From an uncultured Chloroflexia bacterium (lineage in GTDB: Bacteria; Chloroflexota; Dehalococcoidia; SM23-28-2; RBG-16-64-32), in assembly GCA_963717065.1 (NCBI GenBank), contig CAVQVC010000001.1, forward strand, positions 199,643 through 263,642: a stretch of DNA of 64,000 nt. Reading direction: 5' to 3'. Positions 42,650 through 60,950 of the stretch are shown in pieces (position 1 is the stretch's first letter; every line of letters starts with the position of its first letter). The position numbers and the translations under genes were made by a program. The notes below the pieces were generated by a model. That model saw only the letters and a list, made by a program, of their open reading frames with translations, did no database searches and was not told the origin of the DNA.

Positions 42650-44246
42650 GTGCCCGAGTCCGAACTCCCGCTCCTGATCCAGGACCTCTTGCGCCCGGAG
42701 GCCTACCCACACCCCGCGGGTGAGATCCAGCTCATCCAGACTCACATCTCCTACGTTCTCATCGCCGGGGATCACGTCTACAAGATCAAGAAGCCGGTGA
42801 ATTTCGGGTTCCTGGACTTCTCGCACTCTGTCGCGCCGCCGTCATTTCTGTCGCAAAGAGGTCGAGCTCAATTCTCGTCTATGTTCGGATACGTACCTCG
42901 GCGTCGTTCCGGTTCGCCGCACGCCCTCCGGTCACGCTTTCGATGGCCCCGGCGACACCGTCGAGTACGCCGTCCACATGCGCCGCCTCCCCGCCGATCG
43001 CATGATGGACACGCTCCTGGAGCGCGGCGAGGTCACTACGGCGATGATCGAGGCGCTCGCCGCTAAGCTCGCCGCCTTTCACGCGACCGCTGAAACGAAT
43101 CCGCGCATGGCCGCCTACGGCGACTGGGCTATCCGCTACAACCAGCGCGAGAACGAGGACCAATGGGCGCCCTACGTCGGCCGTGTGCTCACGCCCGAGC
43201 AGGACCGCATCCTGCGCGCCTACACCGAGGCCTTCTTCGCGCGCAAAAGAACGTCCTCGCAGCGGCGCGTCGAGCGAGCTGCGCATCCGCCGCGTCCACG
43301 CCGACCTCCGCTCCGACGCCGTCTGCTTCACCAACGGCATCTGCGTCTTCGATTGCGTCGAGTTCAACCGCCGCATCAACGTCCTCGACGTCGCCCGCGA
43401 CACCGGCTTTCTCGCCATGGACCTCAAGTACCGAGGCCACGACGGGCTGGCCGCCGACTTCACCCGCGCCTACCTCGCCGCCGCGCAGTGATCCGGACCA
43501 CGAGGAAGTCATCGACTTCTACGCCATGTACAGTGCCTGTGTCCGCGGCAAAGTCGAGGCATTCCTCCTCGACCTCCCCGAGATATCCGATAAACAGAAG
43601 CGCGCGGCACAACAGGCCGCGAGCCGATACTTCGACCTCGCCTGCCAATACGCTGCGTCGCTTCCCCCCGCGATGCTTGTGATCACCTGCGGCCTCGCCG
43701 GCAGCGGCAAGTCCTCGCTCGCACGCGCCCTCGCGCCCGCCGGATTCGAGGTTCTCTCCTCAGACGTCGTCCGCAAGCAGCTTGCGGGCGTCGAACCGTC
43801 CGAGCACCGCTACGAGGAGTTCGAGAAGGGCATCTACGCCGGCGACACCACCGAACGCACGTACGCCGCTCTGCTGGATCAGGCTCGTCCTCTGCTCGAA
43901 CGGGGCCGCTCCGTCGATCCTCGACGCCTCCTTCCTCCGCCGCGACCACCGCCGCCGCGCCGCCCGCCTCGCGAAAGACACCGGCGCCCAGTTCGCCTGC
44001 CTCTACCTCGAAATCGACGACGCCACCGCGCGCGCCCGCATCGAACAGCGCGTCAAAGAGGGCGGCGACCCCTCAGACGCCCGCTGGCTCGTTTACCGCG
44101 GCCAGAAGCGCCGCTTGCAGAAACCCTCCGAAGTCCCCCTGGACCGCCTGGTCACCCTGGACGCTTCGCGCCCCGTCGCGCACCAGAGACGCAGCGCGAT
44201 CAAGGCGTTACGCGCGATATCCCCGCTATCGCTGGCGATCGGCTGA
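42650..44246 (+). pseudogene. bifunctional aminoglycoside-phosphotransferase-like kinase / AAA_33 P-loop kinase (Rv2004c-like), 4 frameshifts
   Basis: N-terminal THISYVLIAGDHVYKIKKPVNFGFLDFS. Kinase catalytic loop RVHADLRSDAV. C-terminal LVITCGLAGSGKSSLARAL Walker A. Pieces lie in frames 2/0/1/2/0. Confidence 0.65.
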
Positions 44247-45808: not shown

Positions 45809-46702
45809 ATGAAGATCGTGGGTCTTGGGGCATGCGCATTCATCGTCCTGGCGAGCTTTGGAGTCGTCCTCTGGAAATCCTTGTCTGCTGAAACCGAGTC
45901 GGACGATGTCGTGCAGTACTCACAAGATCCTCGCGATGTGATAGAAGCGAGCGTCGCAAAATTCGAGGATCTGTCCTCATACAGCGTCTTGATCTCATCG
46001 AAGACGGCAGAAGACGAGATTCTGACGAAGACGGAAGAATATTACGCGACCATTGACGTGCGGTTGCCGTCCTGGACTCACCAGACCGTCTACAACCACA
46101 ACTTTGAGGCGGTCACCAATGGCGAGAGTGCCTGGATCGAGGACTGCGCCGGCGCCGCGCAAGATTGCGAATGGGTGAAGTGGCCCTATAGTCAGTACAT
46201 CGTGTCCAATCCCGGGGATCCGTTCGAAGAGACGTATGGCGTCGTCGCGCTCGATATGTCCAGCGATGTCGAAATACTTGTAGTGACGGAGGGAGATCGC
46301 CCCCTAGCCAATTTGAGAGGAACCGTCAATCCGGTGCGAGTAGGCATCGAGAACTTCGTTCGCCAACAAGCCGCAGCACAAGGCGCCATGACTATCGGAC
46401 AACACTGTGGCCAGGAGATCCCGGATGCTCCAACCCCCGTTCCCGGGTCGTGTCCAGACCTTGGCGCGGTACTTCAACAATTGCTCGGCCCGGGGGCCGC
46501 CGGTGTGCGTTTCTACGACGACCATCCGGCTACACTGTACGCTGTGATCGACCTTGACAGACTTCAGATAAAGGAAGTGTCCATCTCCGCCGAGCAGGCG
46601 CCCGAATCTGGCGGATTGTACTGGTTTCAAGCGAGCTACTCGGGCTTCAACGACGTGTCCGTTGAACCCCCGGCCAACGCACGTGACTACGACGCCAGTT
46701 AG
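45809..46702 (+). CDS. membrane-anchored hypothetical protein of atypical (lower) GC content
   Basis: N-terminal TM MKIVGLGACAFIVLASFGVVLW. No known domain. GC visibly lower (about 55%) than flanks. Confidence 0.5.
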   Translation: MKIVGLGACAFIVLASFGVVLWKSLSAETESDDVVQYSQDPRDVIEASVAKFEDLSSYSVLISSKTAEDEILTKTEEYYATIDVRLPSWTHQTVYNHNFEAVTNGESAWIEDCAGAAQDCEWVKWPYSQYIVSNPGDPFEETYGVVALDMSSDVEILVVTEGDRPLANLRGTVNPVRVGIENFVRQQAAAQGAMTIGQHCGQEIPDAPTPVPGSCPDLGAVLQQLLGPGAAGVRFYDDHPATLYAVIDLDRLQIKEVSISAEQAPESGGLYWFQASYSGFNDVSVEPPANARDYDAS

Positions 46703-46985
46703 TAGATTCTCGCGCTGTCCGTGCTACCCTGTGCCCATCCGTGGCTAACCAACCCGACCCCGCCGAGCTCGCCATCGCCAATGCCCTCTTCGCCTCCGTC
46801 GCCGACGAGATGGGCGTCACTCTCGGCCGCACCGCGCACTCCCCCAACATCAAGGAGCGGCGCGACTACTCCTGCGCAGTCTTCGACCCCAGCGGCCGCC
46901 TCGTCGCCCAGGCCGCGCACATCCCAGTCCACCTCGGCGCTATGCCCACCGCCGTCGAAGCCGCAATCAATGCCGCTCACCCTGA

Positions 46986-47050
46986 GGAGTCCCTTCGGTC
47001 TCGCAGAGCGGGGGCGAAGGGACGTCTCGAAGGGTTAAGCCCCGGCGACA
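46986..47050. repeat. intragenic palindromic repeat (variant with CTCACCCTGAGG start and GTCCCTTCG/CGAAGGGAC stem) adding 20 aa to HyuB
   Basis: In-frame insert EESLRSRRAGAKGRLEGLSP between the conserved AINAAHP and GDIVILNDPY. Confidence 0.5.
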
Positions 47051-47146
47051 TCGTCATCCTCAACGACCCCTACCTCGGCGGCACCCACCTCCCCGACATC
47101 ACCATGGTCTCCCCCGTCTTCCTTACAAACCCGTCCACGCCTCGAT

Positions 47147-47208
47147 CCGCTCGCCCTGAGGTTCTCGTAGGGCGAGCGGCTGCACAACGGTCCGAACCGG
47201 TACTCATC
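47147..47208. repeat. intragenic copy of stem-loop module CCGCTCGCCCTGAGGTTCTCGTAGGGCGAGCGG (12-bp perfect stem)
   Basis: Adds about 25 aa (TNPSTPRSARPEVLVGRAAAQRSEP) to HyuB. Confidence 0.6.
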
Positions 47209-47604
47209 GGCTTCGTCGCCTCCCGCGCCCACCACGCAGACGTCGGCGGCATCTCCCCCGGCTCCATGCCCATCGCCGAGGAGCTTACCCAGGAAGGCGT
47301 CGTCATCCCCCCGATCAAGCTGTACGACCGCGGTCGCCTCAACCAGCCCGTCCTCGACCTCCTCCTCCGCAACATGCGCGCCCCCGACGAACGCCGCGCC
47401 GACCTCGACGCCCAGATCGCCGCCAACCGCACCGGCGAGGCCCGCCTGCGCGAGATCATCGACCGCTACGGATTGCGCCGCTCGCAGCAACTGATGCGCG
47501 CCCTGATGGACTACGCCGAGCACATGACCCTCGCCGCCATCGCCGCCATCCCCGACGGCGCCTACACATTCGAAGACTTCCTCGATGACGACGGCAGCGA
47601 ATCT

Positions 47605-47727
47605 GTCATTATGAGGGACGAAGAATCCGGGGGGGTGGGGCCAACGCCTCGAATCACCACAACGTCGCGATCCGCTCGCCCTGAGGCACTCGTAGGGCGA
47701 GCAGCGGCAGAACGTCCCGAGTCAGGT
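47605..47727. repeat. intragenic full-length repeat copy (GTCATTATGAGG... plus CCGCTCGCCCTGAGG stem-loop), about 123 bp
   Basis: Adds about 45 aa in frame (SESVIMRDEESGGVGPTPRITTTSRSARPEALVGRAAAERPESG). Confidence 0.65.
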
Positions 47728-48102
47728 GACCCCATCCCGATTCGCGTCACCGTCACCATCTCCGGCGACACCCTCCACGCCGACTTCACCGGCTCCGCCC
47801 CCGAGCGTCCCACCTCCATCAACGCCGTCGCCGCCGTCACCCGCTCCGCCGTCTACTACGTCGTCCGCTGCCTCCTCGACGACAGCGTCCCCTCCAACGA
47901 CGGCTGCTTCCGGCCCGTCACCGTCACCCTCCCCGAGCGCTCCGTCGTCAACGCCGGCCCCCCGCGCGCCGTCGCCGCCGGCAACGTCGAGACCTCCCAG
48001 CGCATCACCGACGTCGTCCTCGGCGCCCTCTCGAAGGCCCTCCCCGACGTCATTCCCGCCGCCTCCCAGGGCACCATGAACAACATCACCATCGGTGGAA
48101 AT

Positions 48103-48215
48103 GTCATCCTGAGGCACGAAGGATCTGGCGAGGAGGGGTCGACGCTCCGTTCCAGCGAGATGCCCCGACTCGCTCGCCCTGAGGAATCGAAGGGCGAGCG
48201 GCAGTGACAACGCCT
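48103..48215. repeat. intragenic full-length repeat copy, about 113 bp, containing the frame break/stop of hyuB
   Basis: GTCATCCTGAGGCACGAAGGATCTGGCG...CGCTCGCCCTGAGGAATCGAAGGGCGAGCGGCAGTGA. Confidence 0.65.
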
Positions 48216-48538
48216 CGCCGGCCCAATTCGCCTACTACGAGACCATCGCCGGCGGCGCCGGCGGCTCCCCCACCGCTCCCGGCCTCGACGCCGTCCACAC
48301 CCACATGACGAACACCCTCAACACCCCCGTCGAGGCCCTCGAGATGGCCTATCCCTTCCGCGTAATCGAATACTCTGTCCGCCGCGGCTCCGGCGGCGCC
48401 GGACGCCACCCCGGCGGCGACGGCGTGACCCGTACCTACGAGTTCCTTGCCCTCGCCACCGTCACCCTGGTCACCGACCGCCGCACCCTCGCCCCCTACG
48501 GCCTCGCCGGCGGCCATCCCGGCACCCCCGGTCGAAAT

Positions 48539-48662
48539 GTCATTATGAGGAACGAAGAGTCCGGGGAAGAGGGGTCAACGCCCCGTTCTGGTGAGGCGCC
48601 ACGACCCGCTCGTCCTGAGGTTCTCGTAGGACGAGCGGCAGGACAACGTCCCGATCACGAAG
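48539..48662. repeat. intragenic full-length repeat copy, about 124 bp, in-frame
   Basis: GTCATTATGAGGAACGAAGAGTCCGGGG...CCGCTCGTCCTGAGGTTCTCGTAGGACGAGCGG. Adds NVIMRNEESGEEGSTPRSGEAPRPARPEVLVGRAAGQRPDHE. Confidence 0.65.
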
Positions 48663-48810
48663 CATTTGAGCCTACCACCCTCCCCTCCAAGGTCCGCCTT
48701 ACCGTCTCCCCCGGCGACCGCCTCATCATCGAAACCCCCGGCGGCGGTGGCTGGGGCCGCAAGCGATCTTCCCTCTCCCGCTCACGGCAGAGGGGAGGGG
48801 GTGAGGGCAA

Positions 48811-49506
48811 ATGACCGACCCACTTTCAGCCGCCTACGACGCTACCTGGTCCCGCTTCCAGAGCCTCACCACCCTCGACGGCGAGCTCAACACAGTGGAC
48901 TCCGCCTGGGCCCGTGGCCGCAGCGAATACCTCGCCTTCCTCATCCCCGTCAACGACCCGGAGGCTGTCGCCTACGTCCGCCCGCTCGCTGAGGGAATCG
49001 CCCACATCCCGGGCGTCGAACCCTACCCCGAGCCTTACTGGCACATCACGATCAAAGGCGCCGGTTTCCTCTGCGAACCGGGCGACAAGCACGACGAAGT
49101 ATCGCCCGCCCGGCTTGAAACCATGACGCCGCTCGCCGCGGCCGTCTTCGCCGCTCTGCCACCGTTCGACATAACACTCGGACGCATAAACGGCTTCGCC
49201 GAAGTCGTCATCATCGAAGTCTGGAACAGCCTTCCCGTCCGCGACCTGAACGCCCGCCTCCTGGAGGCCGTCCCCGGCATCTACCGCCAGCCCTTCGACG
49301 GCCCACTCTTCCTCCCACACATCAGCATCGCCCGATACACCTCAGGCGAAGGCCTCGCGCAGCTCAAGACCACCCTCACCCGTCTCCGCGAACAACCCCG
49401 CGGGCCCACCCTTCGCGTAGACACCGTCGACCTCATCCGCGCCGAGCTCACCTACACCATCCCCACCCTCCACCCCCTCCGACGCTACCCCCTCGCCCAA
49501 AGCTGA
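48811..49506 (+). CDS. 2H phosphoesterase superfamily protein (LigT/2'-5' RNA ligase-like)
   Basis: Two H-x-T/S-x motifs (HITIKG and HISIARY) at the typical spacing. 231 aa. 4-nt overlap with hyuB. Confidence 0.55.
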   Translation: MTDPLSAAYDATWSRFQSLTTLDGELNTVDSAWARGRSEYLAFLIPVNDPEAVAYVRPLAEGIAHIPGVEPYPEPYWHITIKGAGFLCEPGDKHDEVSPARLETMTPLAAAVFAALPPFDITLGRINGFAEVVIIEVWNSLPVRDLNARLLEAVPGIYRQPFDGPLFLPHISIARYTSGEGLAQLKTTLTRLREQPRGPTLRVDTVDLIRAELTYTIPTLHPLRRYPLAQS

Positions 49507-49527
49507 CGTCTGATAGCGACGCCTAAG

Positions 49528-50541
49528 CTACGCCAGGCACCGCAGCGGCTGACCCCCGTTGTACGCCACGATATCGGGCACCACCGACCCCAGCGCCAGC
49601 GGCGTACCCGGCGCCTCGCCCCGCAGCTCGCTGTACGCGCGGTGCAGGTTGCCTACTAGTCGCTCCGGGTCGAGCAGCTCCGAGAACCGTCCCAGGTCTG
49701 TCTCCCGAGCCACCTCCAGTGGCGCCGCCCCCGCCTCGAACCCCTTCTTGGCCACGTCCTGCAGCCAGCGCAGGTAGTCCTCCTGCGCCGCGAACGCCTC
49801 CGCGCTGCAAACGGGCCCGTGCCCCGGCACGATCGTCTCCGCCCCCAGCACCTTGAGCCGCTCCAGCGCCGTCAGCCAGCCCGACACCGACCCCATCATC
49901 GCGAACGGCGTCCCCCCGTTGAACACCAGGTCCCCGGTGAACAGCACCTTCCGCTCCGGAATCCAGGCCACAATATCGTTCGTCGTGTGCGCCGGCCCCA
50001 TGTAGATCAGCTCTACCCGGAGGTCGCCCACCCACAGTGTCAGCCGTTCCTCGAACGTCACCTCTGGCGGCGCGATCCGTATCTCACCCCACTCGACGCC
50101 CGGGAACAGCCCCGTCGTCCCGTGCCCCGCCGCGATCACCTCTTCGCGGCACTTCTCGTGCCCCACGATCGTCGCTCCGGCGGCCTGTCCGCCCGAGGCG
50201 GAAAACACCCAGTTCCCGTGCGTGTGGTCGCCGTGGTGGTGCGTATTCACCAGCGTCTTGATGACCACGGACGGTTGATCCGCTCGTCCTGAGGCTCTCG
50301 TAGGACGAGCGGCGGTCACACGCCCCGCCGTCCGCTCTACTGCCTCCCGAAACCAGCGCGACCGCCGCTCGGTGAAGCACGTGTCGATCACCAGCACCGA
50401 CTCCTCACCCACGATGAAGCCCGTATTGTTCAGTCCCCAGCTCCCATCGAGCTGCACGTAGCCGAACACCCCCGAGCTCACCTCTTCGATCGAAGGCAGT
50501 GGTATCTCAACGTGGTCCGGATCACTCGCAGATGTCATCAC
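49528..50541 (-). CDS. MBL-fold metallo-hydrolase with an in-frame palindromic-repeat insertion
   Basis: HHHGDHTHGN metal-binding motif. Insertion GRVTAARPTRASGRADQPS (element at 50272-50325) sits just N-terminal of it. An ATG start at 50538 is also possible. Confidence 0.75.
   Translation of the reverse strand: MMTSASDPDHVEIPLPSIEEVSSGVFGYVQLDGSWGLNNTGFIVGEESVLVIDTCFTERRSRWFREAVERTAGRVTAARPTRASGRADQPSVVIKTLVNTHHHGDHTHGNWVFSASGGQAAGATIVGHEKCREEVIAAGHGTTGLFPGVEWGEIRIAPPEVTFEERLTLWVGDLRVELIYMGPAHTTNDIVAWIPERKVLFTGDLVFNGGTPFAMMGSVSGWLTALERLKVLGAETIVPGHGPVCSAEAFAAQEDYLRWLQDVAKKGFEAGAAPLEVARETDLGRFSELLDPERLVGNLHRAYSELRGEAPGTPLALGSVVPDIVAYNGGQPLRCLA
50272..50325. repeat. intragenic copy of stem-loop module TGATCCGCTCGTCCTGAGGCTCTCGTAGGACGAGCGG inside the MBL hydrolase gene (opposite orientation relative to the coding strand)
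   Basis: Same module as at 47147 and 48600. Confidence 0.6.
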
Positions 50542-51593
50542 AAAACCTCCCGTTCGAGCGTCTTACATACGAAATGCAGACACAACTTTACGACACGCAG
50601 ACCGAAGAGGCCGTTCAGCCCGCCTCCTTCGGGCGCCGGGCCGTCGCCTACGTACTCGACTGCGTCGTGGTGTTTCTGGTCTGGTTGGCCGTAGTATTCG
50701 CCGCCGCGATGATCTCCTGGCCGCTTGATCAGGGAACCCTGTTGGTCGACGCGATCTTCGTCGCGATGGGTTTCTGGCTGATCTTCGGCTTGTTCATCGC
50801 CTGGTTCGCCTACGAGTGGTTCTTCAACACCCGTGGAACAAGTGCTGGCAAGGCCCTGCTGGGGTTGACAGTGGTCAATCGGTCGGCACTCCCGCCGGGC
50901 TCAGCAGCCGGCTTCAAGCGCACGCTCGGCATGGTCGTGGGTGTCATCCCCCTTGGTCTCGGCTTCTGGTCCGCTTCGTGGGACCTCGAGGGCCGCGCCT
51001 GGCACGACAAGATGGCGGATACCGAAGTGGTCCGACGCACCCGTCAGATCGACCAACCTTGGACCATATCCGCACCGGGAGTACATCGAGTCCGCCGACC
51101 TGATATGCCCGCGGCCCGCTATCCGCTACAGCGGGGGAGCTTGCTCTGGGTTCCATTCGCCTTTATTGTCGGGATCGTTCTCGCGGCGATACAAGGTGGC
51201 TTCGATCCATTGCTCCTCTTGGTCGCGGCGGGCATGTTTCTTCCGCTGGGCATCCTCTTGGAGTTTGCCTGGCGGCGCAGAGGAAACGTGGTACTCCACG
51301 ATTCATACATGGAGGTGAGTCGATATGAATGGGGTCAGGAGGCCACTCCACCCAATGTCAAGATACGTTACGAGAACATCCTCGACGTTCAGCAAACAGG
51401 CCCGACGGAACTGGCCGTCTACCTCAGCTCAGTTGAAGGCCCGTACGAACTGACCGAACCCACCGCCACCGTCACCTTCCGCCCAAAGGACGCACAGGCG
51501 GTCCTCGAAGACATCCGCCGCCGCGTCGACGCCGCCAAGCAATCCACAGACGAATCTCGAAGCTCGACGATCGAGATGAGCACCACGAGCTAG
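50532..51593 (+). CDS. RDD-family membrane protein with C-terminal bacterial PH-like (YdbT-type) domain
   Basis: RRAVAYVLD...RGTSAGKALLGL RDD motifs. C-terminal TM hairpin and bPH-like region. Start uncertain (50574 is an alternative). Confidence 0.6.
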   Translation: MSSQNLPFERLTYEMQTQLYDTQTEEAVQPASFGRRAVAYVLDCVVVFLVWLAVVFAAAMISWPLDQGTLLVDAIFVAMGFWLIFGLFIAWFAYEWFFNTRGTSAGKALLGLTVVNRSALPPGSAAGFKRTLGMVVGVIPLGLGFWSASWDLEGRAWHDKMADTEVVRRTRQIDQPWTISAPGVHRVRRPDMPAARYPLQRGSLLWVPFAFIVGIVLAAIQGGFDPLLLLVAAGMFLPLGILLEFAWRRRGNVVLHDSYMEVSRYEWGQEATPPNVKIRYENILDVQQTGPTELAVYLSSVEGPYELTEPTATVTFRPKDAQAVLEDIRRRVDAAKQSTDESRSSTIEMSTTS

Positions 51594-53889: not shown

Positions 53890-54730
53890 CTACGAGAACT
53901 TCGCCGGCCGCTTCTCCTGGAACGCCTTGATCCCCTCCCGCGCGTCCGCGTGGTGGTCGCTTATCGCCGTCTTCGCCGCGATGTCGTCCAGCGCCTGCTC
54001 CCACGTCTGCGACGCCGCGTTATACACGCTCCGCTTCAAAAGACGCATCGCCACCTGTGGCCCCGCTGCCATCTCGTGTGCCAGCTCCAGCGCCCGCGGA
54101 ATCAGCTTCTCCGGCGACACGACCTCGTCCACCAGCCCCAACTCCAGCGCCTCCTCCGCTCCGACGATCTTCGCCTTCATCAGGAAGTCCAGCGTCTTCG
54201 GCACACCTATCAGCTGCACGAGCAGCCACTGGCCCCCCTCGTCCGGCATCAGCGCGAACCGCATCGTCCCGCTCCCCATCCGGGCCTCCGTCGAAGCGAT
54301 CCGGAAGTCGCACGACAGCGCCAGTGACAGCCCTGTCTGCACCGCCACGCCGTTTACCGCCGCGATCGTAATCTTGTCCAGGTTTCGCACGGCGCTGTTC
54401 AGCGTCTGCGACAGCACCCGCAGCCCCTCGTACGTCCCGATCGGGTTCTGGTGGCCCCGTCCCGATGTCCGGCATGATCGCCGTCGCCCCGCCCGGAGGC
54501 GGACGCCCCGTGATGTCGTCCCCGGCCGAGAACGCGCGACCCGAACCCGTCATCACCACCACCCGCACCGCGTCGTCCATCTGCGCCTCTGTCAATATCT
54601 CGATCAAGTCCCGCTTGAACCCCTGCGTCATCCCGTTCAACCGCTCCGGCTGGTTGAACGTCACCACCGCCGCCCCTTTATCGTCCAGCGCTATCTCAAA
54701 CCCCCTAAACGTCCCCTGCTGCATCGCCAT
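53890..54730 (-). pseudogene. enoyl-CoA hydratase/isomerase family (crotonase), one frameshift near 54440
   Basis: N-terminal FNQPERLNGMT...GSGRAFSAGDDI. C-terminal IAAVNGVAVQTGLSLALSCDFRIAS...GIKAFQEKRPAKF. Shift at a GGGG run. Start with a GGAGG RBS. Confidence 0.75.
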
Positions 54731-54745
54731 ACCTCCACTACGACT

Positions 54746-54876
54746 GTCACCCTGAGGAACGGGTATGGTCGAGAACCGAAGTTTACCGCGACGCTCGGGA
54801 CTTAGTCTGCGAGTGGCCGCGAGATCGACTGAGCACGCCAAAACACGGCGCCAGAATCCTCGTTCCTCAGAATGAC
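54746..54876. mobile_element. complete MITE-like element, 131 bp, with 16-bp terminal inverted repeats GTCACCCTGAGGAACG / CGTTCCTCAGAATGAC
   Basis: TIRs match 14 of 16. Internal sequence homologous (reverse orientation) to the intragenic copies. Lies between the crotonase start (54730) and the next crotonase stop (54906). Confidence 0.7.
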
Positions 54877-54905
54877 CGGCGACACTCAGCACTAACCGCA
54901 GGCTC

Positions 54906-55751
54906 CTACTCCCCCCGAAACACCGGTGCACGCTTCTCCACGAACGCCTTCGCCGCCTCCCGGTGGTCCATCGTCCCGCCCGAGAGCCGCATGTTCAGCG
55001 CCTCCTGGTCCAGGTGCGGCCCCAGGTCCTGGCTCCACGTCCGGTTCAGGTTCTCCTTCATCCGTGCGTAGGCCAGCGTCGGCCCGCTCGCCAGGTTCGA
55101 GGCCAGCGCCATCGTCTCCTTCTCGAGTTCATCGTGCGGCACCACCCGCGAGACCATCCCGATCCGCTTCGCCTCCGCCGCCTCCATGATCTCGCCCGTG
55201 AAGTACAGCTCGCGAGCCTTCTCCATCCCCACCAGCCTGGGCAGGAACCAGCTCCCGCCGAAGTCGCCGCTGAACCCCACGTTCCGGAACACCGTCCCCA
55301 TCTTCGCGCTCGGTCGCTCGCGATACGCAGGTCGCAGGCCAGCGCCAGCGACAGCCCCGCCCCCACCGCGTGCCCGTTCACCATCGCGATCGTCGGCTTC
55401 GGCATCGTGTGCAGCATGTAGCTCGTCGCCCGCTGCCCCTCGCGCAGCTCGTTCACCCCCGTCGCCAGGTACCACGCGTCCGACTTCGCGCTATTCCGCT
55501 GCACCCGTGCGCCGTGTCGTAGGCCTGCTGCCCGCCCTCGCCGCCATCCCCTTCACGTCCCCGCCCGCGCAGAACGCCCGCCCCGCCCCCGTCAGCACCA
55601 CGCATCGTATCGACGTATCCGCCGAGCACTCCGCCAGGTACTTCCCCAGCAGCGGCATCAAATCCCCGCCCATCGCGTTCAGGCTCTCCGGCCGGTTCAG
55701 CGTGATCCACCCGATCCCGCCCTCACGCACCTCAAACTCCGTGTCAGCCAT
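54906..55751 (-). pseudogene. enoyl-CoA hydratase/isomerase family (crotonase), 2 frameshifts
   Basis: Pieces ITLNRPESLNAM...GAGRAFCAGGD, IAMVNGHAVGAGLSLALACDLRIAS and a C-terminal ...EAAKAFVEKRAPVF in three frames. Confidence 0.75.
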
Positions 55752-60149: not shown

Positions 60150-60950
60150 CTACTTTCCCTGGAACACCGGCGGCCGCTTCTCCACGAACGCCCGCGCCGC
60201 CTCCATGTGGTCCTGCGTCATCCCCGTCATGATCATCCCCTCCGCCTCCGCGTCCAGTAGCTTCGGGAACTCGCTCACCAGGGCCAGGTTCATGTTCTGC
60301 TTCATCCGCTTGAGCGCGATTGGAGGCCCGTTCGTGATCTTGCCAGCCAGCGCCATCGTCTCCTCGCGCAACTTGTCGTCAGGGAATGTCCGGTTGAACA
60401 GCCCGATCCGCTCAGCCTCCTTTGCGTCGATCAGCTCGCCCGTGAAATACAGCTCACGCGCCTTTGCCGGCCCGATCAGCCGCTGCATGTGCCAGGTGCC
60501 GCCGAAGTCACCGGAGAAACCCACTCGGGCGAACGCGCTCCCCACGCGCGCGCTCTCCGCCGCGTACCGGATGTCGCAGGCAAGCGCCAGGCTGAGGCCC
60601 GCTCCCGCGACAGCGCCGTTGATCATCGCGATCGTAGGCTTCGCCATCTCGTGCAGCAGGCGCGAAGACTCCTCTTGCTCGCGCAGCCGGGCTACGGGGT
60701 CGGCCGTCATGCCTGAAACCGCTTCGCCGCTGGCCATAGCGCTTACGTCTCCGCCGGCGCAGAAGCCGCGTCCCGAACCCGTGAGCACAACACATCGGAC
60801 GTCGTCGTCATCAGCCAGCGCTTGAAGGGTCCCCGGCAGCGCGCTCAGCAACTCCTGGTTCAGGGCGTTCAGCTTCTCCGGGCGGTTAAGCGTTACCGTC
60901 GCCAGATGGTCCTGCACGTCAACGAGAACGGACTCTGTTGTGGTCGTCAT
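60150..60950 (-). CDS. enoyl-CoA hydratase/isomerase family protein (crotonase), intact
   Basis: VTLNRPEKLNAL...GSGRGFCAGGD...INGAVAGAGLSLALACDIRYAAESA. 266 aa. Confidence 0.85.
   Translation of the reverse strand: MTTTTESVLVDVQDHLATVTLNRPEKLNALNQELLSALPGTLQALADDDDVRCVVLTGSGRGFCAGGDVSAMASGEAVSGMTADPVARLREQEESSRLLHEMAKPTIAMINGAVAGAGLSLALACDIRYAAESARVGSAFARVGFSGDFGGTWHMQRLIGPAKARELYFTGELIDAKEAERIGLFNRTFPDDKLREETMALAGKITNGPPIALKRMKQNMNLALVSEFPKLLDAEAEGMIMTGMTQDHMEAARAFVEKRPPVFQGK

Follow-up and report, generated by a model that had tools for sequence, protein, structure and literature searches.

Is a short peptide that lies in frame close to the active site of an enzyme a part of that enzyme, or is it the translation of a DNA repeat that the gene tolerates? 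This question is raised by a 64-kb stretch of contig CAVQVC010000001.1 (positions 199,643 to 263,642; the whole stretch is referred to as the window and coordinates are counted from its first letter). The window contains a gene for a metallo-β-lactamase (MBL)-fold hydrolase and, inside this gene, a hairpin-forming repeat, module B, located shortly before the codons for the metal-binding motif. The results favour tolerance. With a probability of roughly 80%, the segment is a short non-coding mobile palindromic repeat, similar to a repetitive extragenic palindromic (REP) sequence or a small transposable element of the miniature inverted-repeat type (MITE), which is tolerated in frame in a permissive loop of the protein. 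The gene and its insert comprise the following features.

49528..50538, - strand: MBL-fold metallo-hydrolase gene (open reading frame list, Pfam, identity to database protein P0001, model matches)
50275..50327, + strand: inserted palindromic repeat, module B, ~51 nt (alignments of filled versus empty sites; direct-repeat family D4)
50280..50290, + strand: hairpin 5' arm, CCGCTCGTCCT
50291..50301, + strand: 11-nt hairpin loop, GAGGCTCTCGT, of the Chloroflexota/Dehalococcoidia loop subfamily
50302..50312, + strand: hairpin 3' arm, AGGACGAGCGG
50224..50241, - strand: HHHGDH (HxHxDH) metal-binding motif, codons for residues 100-105 (columns that are invariant in alignment A5)

The MBL product is 336 amino acids long from the ATG at 50538 (the listed open reading frame (ORF), 49528-50541, opens one codon upstream with GTG at 50541) and is identical to the 336-aa database protein P0001. 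Pfam Lactamase_B (PF00753) matched the ORF over profile positions 3-196 of 196 with a score of 77.6 bits (cut-off 22.7) and E = 1.6e-21. The original prediction, which described an in-frame insertion in an MBL-fold gene, was thus borne out, the ORF being intact.

The hairpin module is real and lies inside the gene, as had been claimed. Its 33-nt core at 50280-50312 forms 11 Watson-Crick pairs, to which RNAfold adds a G·U pair to give the predicted 12-bp stem. Folded as the + strand, the core had an energy of -23.0 kcal/mol, and in the sense of the mRNA one of -21.8 kcal/mol; the 71-nt region around the hairpin was more stable than shuffled sequences on both strands (z = -3.3 and -4.1). Comparison with empty-site orthologues gave limits for the insert of roughly 50275-50325/7, uncertain by ~3 nt, and placed it between ...VERTA and PSVVIKTLVNTHHHGDH. 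Its 17 codons, for residues 72-88, are decoded in frame on the minus strand as GRVTAARPTRASGRADQ. The translation of the stretch containing the insert, ...TAGRVTAARPTRASGRADQPS..., had been given correctly (the peptide stretches ...ERTAGRVTAARPTR... and ...ASGRADQPSVVIK... span the insert), but it had been placed immediately before HHHGDHTHGN. The 11 residues PSVVIKTLVNT separate the end of the insert from HHHGDH and the insert is therefore near the motif rather than abutting it.

Alignment with orthologues identifies the segment as a derived insertion. The DTCFT-to-THHHGD spacing was measurable in 113 of the 120 best homologues. The spacing was 24-26 aa in 107 of these and 38-46 aa in the other six, among them the window's protein. 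Of 75 metagenomic homologues that are more distant, 71 also have a constant spacing. The orthologue alignment suggested with the original prediction therefore found an empty site in 107/113 close and 71/75 distant homologues. On a syntenic contig of a relative, a 313-aa MBL protein is encoded next to the same 2'-5' RNA ligase, and HyuB has a clean length of 544 aa. The homologues with a named source, including P0106, are from Dehalococcoidia. Sharing of the segment by orthologues had been named as the observation that would count against an insertion. In a weak sense a few orthologues do share a loop insert, since five further homologues among the 113 have one, all in the same 4-residue loop as the window's protein; but these inserts belong to other subfamilies or families and the nearest relatives have empty sites. 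One of the five, P0004, is encoded identically, with its insert, in four independent assemblies.

Module B is repeated within the window. A pattern search of the 64 kb found four copies where 0.00 were expected from shuffles, and a fifth copy with a 10-nt loop was found at 48171-48200. All five copies are intragenic. Besides the MBL copy they lie in hyuB (Pfam Hydantoinase_B), 46741-48814, which is 1.3 kb from the MBL gene, in the following blocks.

47137..47195, + strand: module B copy at hyuB insertion site 2 (...SARPEVLVGRAAA...); this site is empty in L208, a locus from another genome
47604..47720, + strand: composite of module A and module B at hyuB site 3 (direct-repeat families D8 and D4); empty in L208 and with a different module in L007
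48102..48210, + strand: composite of module A and the 10-nt-loop variant of module B at hyuB site 4; a stop (48205-48207) follows, with a change of frame
48538..48654, + strand: composite of module A and module B at hyuB site 5, with a core 32/33 identical to the MBL copy

The one difference between the MBL core and the hyuB copy at 48606, which agree at 32 of 33 positions, is a single loop base. Both GTCCT/AGGAC and GCCCT/AGGGC stems are present among the window copies. The orientation of the copies was set by the asymmetric loop. The MBL copy had been described as opposite in orientation to the hyuB copies. This is so relative to translation; on the chromosome, however, all five share the + strand orientation and it is the MBL gene which lies on the opposite strand. 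Module A, GTCATYMTGAGGNACGAAGRRTC, often precedes module B in the window and has three copies in hyuB. A lone intergenic copy, GTCATTCTGAGGAACGAGGATTC at 54854-54876 (- strand), lies between two enoyl-CoA hydratase-like genes, and module A therefore also occurs extragenically and without module B. There are nine repeat copies in the window and they are clustered.

The hyuB gene spans ~690 codons in the window and has five insert blocks amounting to ~146 extra residues relative to the clean orthologue of 544 aa. The stop at 48205-48207, with a frame change inside insert 4, divides it into two ORFs that correspond to profile positions 1-366 and 373-518. The 31 nt following the hairpin of this insert contain one base more than L007 has, within 48200-48230. 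Either the gene is truly a pseudogene or a split gene, or the assembly has an indel here. The gene also contains another very stable hairpin, GAGGAGTCCCTTCGGTCTCGC / GCGGGGGCGAAGGGACGTCTC, at 46984-47028 (-41.5 kcal/mol and z = -5.1 for a 66-nt region), which is read in frame as PEESLRSRRAGAKGRLEG and for which the site is empty in L208.

The reading frames used by the copies indicate what has been kept. In the + orientation, TGA and TAG close two of the three frames of the core and only ARPE(A/V)LVGRA is open; this frame is used by all the intact hyuB copies. The peptide common to these copies is thus a by-product of a stop-codon filter. In the reverse orientation the core is open in all three frames, or in two of three when the flanks of the MBL copy are included, and the frame of the MBL gene gives ...AARPTRASGRA.... 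The frames actually used are those expected from an open-frame filter (one of three open in one orientation and three of three in the other), which supports a tolerated insert. Other peptides, AARPSIPQGERNG, RSPSTGSGQSEG, LTQSGFDGHPSPAAAGEG and RPATKTGRQGSGRAG, occupy the same MBL loop in relatives. In P0004, a 10-nt-loop variant of the hairpin is found at the same place and its 5' arm is read as AARP, but its 3' arm is read as QGERN instead of SGRAD with the frame restored downstream. This shift within the hairpin is direct evidence that the peptide is not the conserved thing: the element is kept as a hairpin, not as a peptide. The insert is also dispensable because the 107 close and 71 distant homologues noted above do without it. 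Tolerance rather than selection for a peptide, for which the original prediction had argued, is therefore supported by the absence of the insert from most homologues, the unrelated peptides in the same loop, the frame of P0004, the stop filter and the predicted fold described below. Gene callers will turn such a repeat into recurring pseudo-motifs, for example ARPEALVGRA and PFDRLRASG and, given the stop-codon content of the repeat, these peptides should not be taken for conserved domains.

The MBL ORF is full length and its catalytic motifs are all intact. In the 73-sequence alignment A5, the metal ligands H100, H102, D104, H105, H184 (in GPAHTTND) and D203 (in GDLVF) are invariant and H240 (in PGHG) is nearly so. 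AlphaFold2, run on this alignment, gave a model of the insert-bearing protein with a mean predicted local distance difference test score (pLDDT) of 87.9 and a predicted template modelling score (pTM) of 0.89, so that the fold is predicted to be unchanged by the insert. The elements predicted around the insert are a helix at residues 57-76, coil at 77-91 and a strand at 92-98. The pLDDT was 64 in the 10-residue block 81-90 versus 87 and 91 in the flanking blocks. In the model, the first five residues of the insert would lengthen helix α1 and the remaining ones would form the lower-confidence loop. The base of the insert is probably roughly 20 Å from the metal site, judging from general MBL topology and a 7-residue strand, because HxHxDH follows the C-terminal end of this strand while the insert precedes its N-terminal end. 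A Foldseek search with the model gave as best matches 8d2z (E = 2e-20), an uncharacterised Burkholderia MBL protein, and 6uxu, a chlorothalonil dehalogenase, followed by class B β-lactamases. The model thus has the α-β/β-α sandwich expected of this fold. The structure prediction, which had been proposed as a check on the HxHxDH site, accordingly has the fold kept, the insert in a loop of lower confidence and the ligands of the motif retained.

Module B is not confined to the window. A scan for the stem with any loop, using one genome per species, found at least 117 DNA stretches, and the taxa among the matches listed include Dehalococcoidia, other Chloroflexota metagenome-assembled genomes (MAGs), Anaeromyxobacter, unclassified Proteobacteria MAGs, Binatia, Methylomirabilota and others. 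Within these listed matches, the conserved part of the repeat is the loop, which is generally GAGCCTGTCGA and is GAGGNNCTCGT in a Chloroflexota/Dehalococcoidia subfamily that is almost restricted to MAGs of these groups. Two of the latter, L036 and L101, have a 33-nt core identical to that of the MBL copy. The pairing of the stem was examined in copies picked by an exact loop match alone, leaving out the stem used in the scan. The arms paired in 73.8% of cells versus 36-46% when the partner was slid by 1-3 columns. The covariation score was 0.437 versus 0.211 for shuffled sequences and was reached by 0/500 shuffles, though kinship among the repeat copies means that the shuffle control overstates the significance, a weakness of which the slid control is free. 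The exchanged stem segments are GCCC/GGGC, GTCC/GGAC, GTGC/GCAC, GTGG/CCAC and ATGG/CCAT. At the free stem position in the scan, T·G occurred 14 times versus twice for C·A on the strand defined by the loop, and this asymmetry suggests that one strand may be the one that must fold. With its conserved loop, covarying stems and spread across phyla, the module belongs to a hairpin-repeat superfamily.

The locations of the repeat in other genomes are mixed. Module B is present twice, each time in frame (GSARPEALVGRAG and LPARPEALVGREG), in a PHP-domain ORF of a Chloroflexota MAG (L095:1172-2743). Single in-frame copies are found in other Chloroflexota MAGs in a fragment of an Lhr helicase (L032) and in a BNR-repeat protein (L094). 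Copies also lie upstream of mdh-like and nfo-like genes in L064 and L041, so both genic and extragenic locations are used. The hairpin is also seen in tandem arrays at L018:361-564, L028:436-558 and L074:2987-3163, with periods of 57, 45 and 72 nt. The tandem arrays in Proteobacteria and Anaeromyxobacter MAGs resemble REP clusters. The superfamily appears to be without an Rfam entry, as no covariance model of Rfam 15 matched at E <= 1 within 46500-50800 on either strand. A full-text search for the loop sequence returned chance primer matches only and found no description of the repeat. The literature on REP and palindromic repeats in Dehalococcoidia, Chloroflexi and Anaeromyxobacter yielded nothing specific beyond PMC3733652 and PMC6006769. 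A superfamily present in Chloroflexota, Anaeromyxobacter, other Proteobacteria, Methylomirabilota and Binatia and showing clear stem covariation is a more useful outcome than the single case.

Several known elements behave in a similar way. The Rickettsia palindromic elements (RPE; Ogata et al. 2000, as summarised in PMC3733652) are there presented as palindromic repeats lying in frame in ORFs whose proteins are probably functional. The likeness is one of shared behaviour only: an in-frame palindrome in ORFs that are left open, tolerated and not selected as a peptide. RPE differ in that they are described from Rickettsia and that, in the same summary, RPE-1 inserts are longer palindromic insertions. 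No kinship in sequence with RPE was seen, and no search aimed at it was made. The present host, by comparison, is free-living with 65% GC and is probably a member of the Chloroflexota; its relatives are Dehalococcoidia/Chloroflexota MAGs and it is clearly not Rickettsia.

The GTAG/CGTC REPs (Di Nocera et al. 2013, PMC3733652) are stem-loops of 20-40 bp which are dispersed and often clustered. A minority lie wholly inside ORFs, where they encode 10-30 aa placed in flexible linkers or loops (PMC3733652). Module B is likewise a short dispersed imperfect palindrome (a 33-nt stem-loop with five window copies versus 0 expected and at least 117 loci elsewhere). However, these REPs carry a tag at one end of the stem-loop and module B is without a terminal tag; GTAG occurs in the GAGGNNCTCGT subfamily only across the junction of loop and 3' arm, where the general family has GTCGAAGG. 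REPs are mainly extragenic; five of five window copies of module B are genic and those in other genomes are mixed. A motif scan of the window and 208 loci for a REP-associated tyrosine transposase (RAYT) found no RAYT-like or Y1 transposase in the window or adjoining module B copies. The scan gave one candidate, L094:2-505, in a Chloroflexota MAG with a module B copy. This ORF scored 59 bits against NCBIfam REP_Tyr_transpos (cut-off 80) and 26.9 bits against Pfam Y1_Tnp (cut-off 23); the MAG's module B copy is 5 kb away and none flanks the ORF. It contains an in-frame, GTAG-tagged perfect palindrome of its own, GTAGGGGCGACCGG/CCGGTCGCCCCTAC (L094:237-274), read as VGATGRSPL, which is found again 3.4 kb away (L094:3646-3673).

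Small mobile sequences or MITEs occur within genes in Enterobacteria and Coxiella (PMC2759123, PMC2229807, PMC5896051) and, as these accounts outline them, they contribute peptide segments. Like module B, they are described there as non-autonomous repeats between and within genes. They differ in being at least 100-170 bp long with terminal inverted repeats, again as outlined in these accounts, whereas module B is ~51 nt and a single hairpin without terminal inverted repeats or duplication. MITEs are generally recognised by terminal inverted repeats, a target-site duplication and a length of ~70-300 bp, and the central hairpin is the sole inverted repeat of module B. As far as it is set out in PMC6006769, the 'peel and paste' transposition of IS200/IS605 and REP/RAYT systems offers a further likeness: elements defined by a hairpin, no target duplication and strand specificity, with which the T·G count of 14 versus 2 may be compared. 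Filled and empty alleles with near-identical flanks, and a RAYT-like ORF in one MAG with module B, can be added to this likeness. Relative to the systems outlined there, module B differs in having no adjoining transposase and no target tetranucleotide that could be made out, and the ORF in L094 has its own GTAG palindrome and falls below the NCBIfam cut-off. Module B thus behaves like REP/RPE-like elements without membership in a described family.

The byps of Magnusiomyces mitochondria and of T4 gene 60 are GC-rich hairpin inserts which break the frame and are skipped by the ribosome. They resemble module B as short GC-rich hairpin inserts in coding sequence, but the copies considered here are kept open and in frame, which, unlike the situation in byps, argues for translation. 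Translational bypass or removal of the insert is therefore rejected.

A mechanism for the tolerated repeat can be proposed. A copy of the repeat would have landed in the MBL gene and its survival would have depended upon two conditions. The first is that the orientation and frame used contain no stop and that the length is divisible by three; the second is that it landed in a permissive loop, between helix α1 and the strand leading to HxHxDH. The ribosome would read through the insert, adding 17 residues rich in Arg, Ala, Gly and Thr which, according to the model, extend α1 slightly and continue as a flexible loop, at that end of the strand which is distant from the metal site. Folding and activity of the enzyme are very probably preserved, and the insert is likely to be translated and harmless. 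The element may have spread as a single-stranded hairpin, possibly by means of an HUH/Y1 (RAYT- or IS200-like) enzyme, and this is the weakest step of the proposal.

Several observations weigh against this explanation. Neither a target-site duplication nor terminal inverted repeats nor a transposase came to light, and the signs of mobility are the dispersed copies and the pairs of filled and empty sites. The frameshifted hyuB gene and three frame changes in the gene at 42978-44246 point either to assembly indels or to a build-up of pseudogenes. Translation of the insert and activity of the enzyme are predictions from sequence and model. Finally, six of the seven element-like inserts of the protein family are in one loop, and this is poorly explained by random hits followed by a filter.

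The last point deserves attention because the repeated use of one loop is the new part of the result. Tolerated in-frame palindromic inserts are already known from other bacteria and the case itself is ordinary, adding a Chloroflexota example that can be checked in a well-understood enzyme fold. What is new is that the same MBL loop has been colonised repeatedly by different hairpin modules in relatives, and the hyuB sites likewise. This amounts to a natural experiment on loop tolerance and possibly on the targeting of insertion. The hairpins in P0004, P0015 and P0083 are of the module B type and from other loop subfamilies, that of P0083 being partly decayed, while P0002 and P0003 have an unrelated hairpin module (LTQSG..HPSP..GEG) in the loop. 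When the insert columns were removed, the nearest relatives of P0083, P0015 and P0002 were empty-site proteins with 88%, 84% and 99% identity. P0002 and P0005 form a filled and empty pair of 99% identical proteins, and their contigs (L005/L007) agree at 95-99% to both sides of the site. The carriers are spread over at least four clades. From these comparisons there have been at least four separate gains, or losses, at the MBL loop, some of them very recent. In hyuB, the modules at sites 3, 4 and 5 differ between the window, L007, L208 and L009, with L208 having nothing inserted at sites 1-3. At site 4 of the L208 gene (L208:4453-6132), one hairpin is nested in the loop of another (CCGCTCGTCCTGAG-[CGCTTC...GAAGCG]-AGTCGAAGGAC), which is evidence for elements inserting within each other.

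Hairpin elements might therefore be directed to the MBL loop by its sequence, by DNA structure or by a resident element. This is a possibility to be taken seriously, though the odds are well against it, and it is compatible with a tolerated repeat. In its favour, all six insert-bearing homologues of the 113 use the same 4-residue loop and only P0091 has an element-like insert elsewhere in the protein; the scattered carriers with empty nearest relatives, the near-identical L005/L007 flanks, the use of one site by two unrelated hairpin families, the exchange of modules at the hyuB sites and the nested hairpin all point the same way. There is also a precedent in the GTAG-23 REPs of T. roseum, which insert inside small palindromes (PMC3733652). 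However, a target duplication, a shared target motif and microhomology were sought at the filled/empty junctions and none was found, a single transposase target for two unrelated element families is unlikely, and the sample is small. The common orientation and frame of the four B-type MBL inserts requires no special cause, since it is not significant once the open-frame filter and the likely common descent of the window and P0004 inserts are allowed for (~0.1-0.25 by our own estimate). Selection for a permissive loop explains part of the pattern.

Two candidate targets were rejected. GAGCGGA occurs upstream of the insert and in the 3' arm in the window and L001, but with a spacing of 52 nt, and it is absent from L005, L009 and L127, so it is not a general rule. 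TTGAT, the target of ISDra2, precedes the MBL copy, but the hyuB copies have CGAT or CGAC and those of other genomes CCCTTC, and it is more likely to be part of a variable flank.

A stronger form of directed insertion, in which at least two unrelated hairpin families are sent, in this Chloroflexota lineage, to the same few codon-level positions (the MBL α1/β loop and hyuB sites 3-5) and replace one another, is doubtful. If true, loop cassettes would be gained, lost and exchanged continually at these positions, which would act as in-frame 'landing pads', and targeting would occur by structure or by homing into a resident hairpin and not by random insertion and selection. The superfamily, with its 11-nt loop, covarying stems, strand-specific wobble and cross-phylum spread, would then be an undescribed element mobilised as a single strand.

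Co-option, with the extra loop or the mRNA hairpin now under selection as an interaction surface, in the regulation of translation or folding, or for mRNA stability, is unlikely. It would account for a perfect stem (11/11) within coding sequence, for the stability of the 71-nt region and for the retention of the hyuB-site inserts across relatives at 71-77% protein identity. But the carriers do not share a peptide, nor even a frame for the 3' arm, most orthologues do without the insert and its pLDDT is low, while a perfect stem is equally expected of a young or homogenised copy.

Less likely still is inactivation, whereby the insert and a second, smaller one would mark a decaying gene in a region that accumulates damage. 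The second insert is as follows.

50176..50202, - strand: second, smaller lineage-specific insertion in the MBL gene (alignments A2 and A3)

It is an 18-nt insertion with a net gain of 6 aa, SASGGQAAG standing in place of 3 residues directly after HGDHTHGNWVF. It contains a small palindrome, TCCGCCTCGGGCGGA, and is present in the window's protein only and in none of the aligned homologues. A decaying region would fit with the hyuB gene 1.3 kb away, with its five insert blocks, frameshift and stop at 48205-48207, and with the three frame changes in the gene at 42978-44246. Against this, the MBL ORF runs its full length and keeps all catalytic motifs, its protein is 80-85% identical to relatives outside the insert and its fold is confidently predicted.

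That the segment is ancestral and was lost elsewhere, or is an artefact of assembly, is very improbable: a related module is at the same place in P0004, but the loop length is fixed in 107/113 close and 71/75 distant homologues, which repeated ragged deletions would not yield, the inserts are of different loop subfamilies, and it would be surprising for an artefact to be in frame, stop-free and a 32/33 match to a repeat that is also in frame in independent short-read assemblies.

The gene at 42978-44246 is kinase-like and has three +1 frame changes, near 43260, 43500 and 43920; in L208 the orthologous product is an APH/AAA_33 protein of 537 aa. These frame changes are those of a pseudogene or are assembly indel errors, and this bears on the trust that can be placed in single-base details of the window. 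The GC skew is negative over the whole window, 1-64000 (-0.08 to -0.22), regardless of gene orientation and is strongest at ~44-60 kb; the + strand is markedly C-rich. The direct-repeat families D2, D7, D10, D14 and D20 (63-84% identity; 53896-55619 and 60162-60809) are paralogous enoyl-CoA hydratase-like genes and are unrelated to the hairpin repeats.

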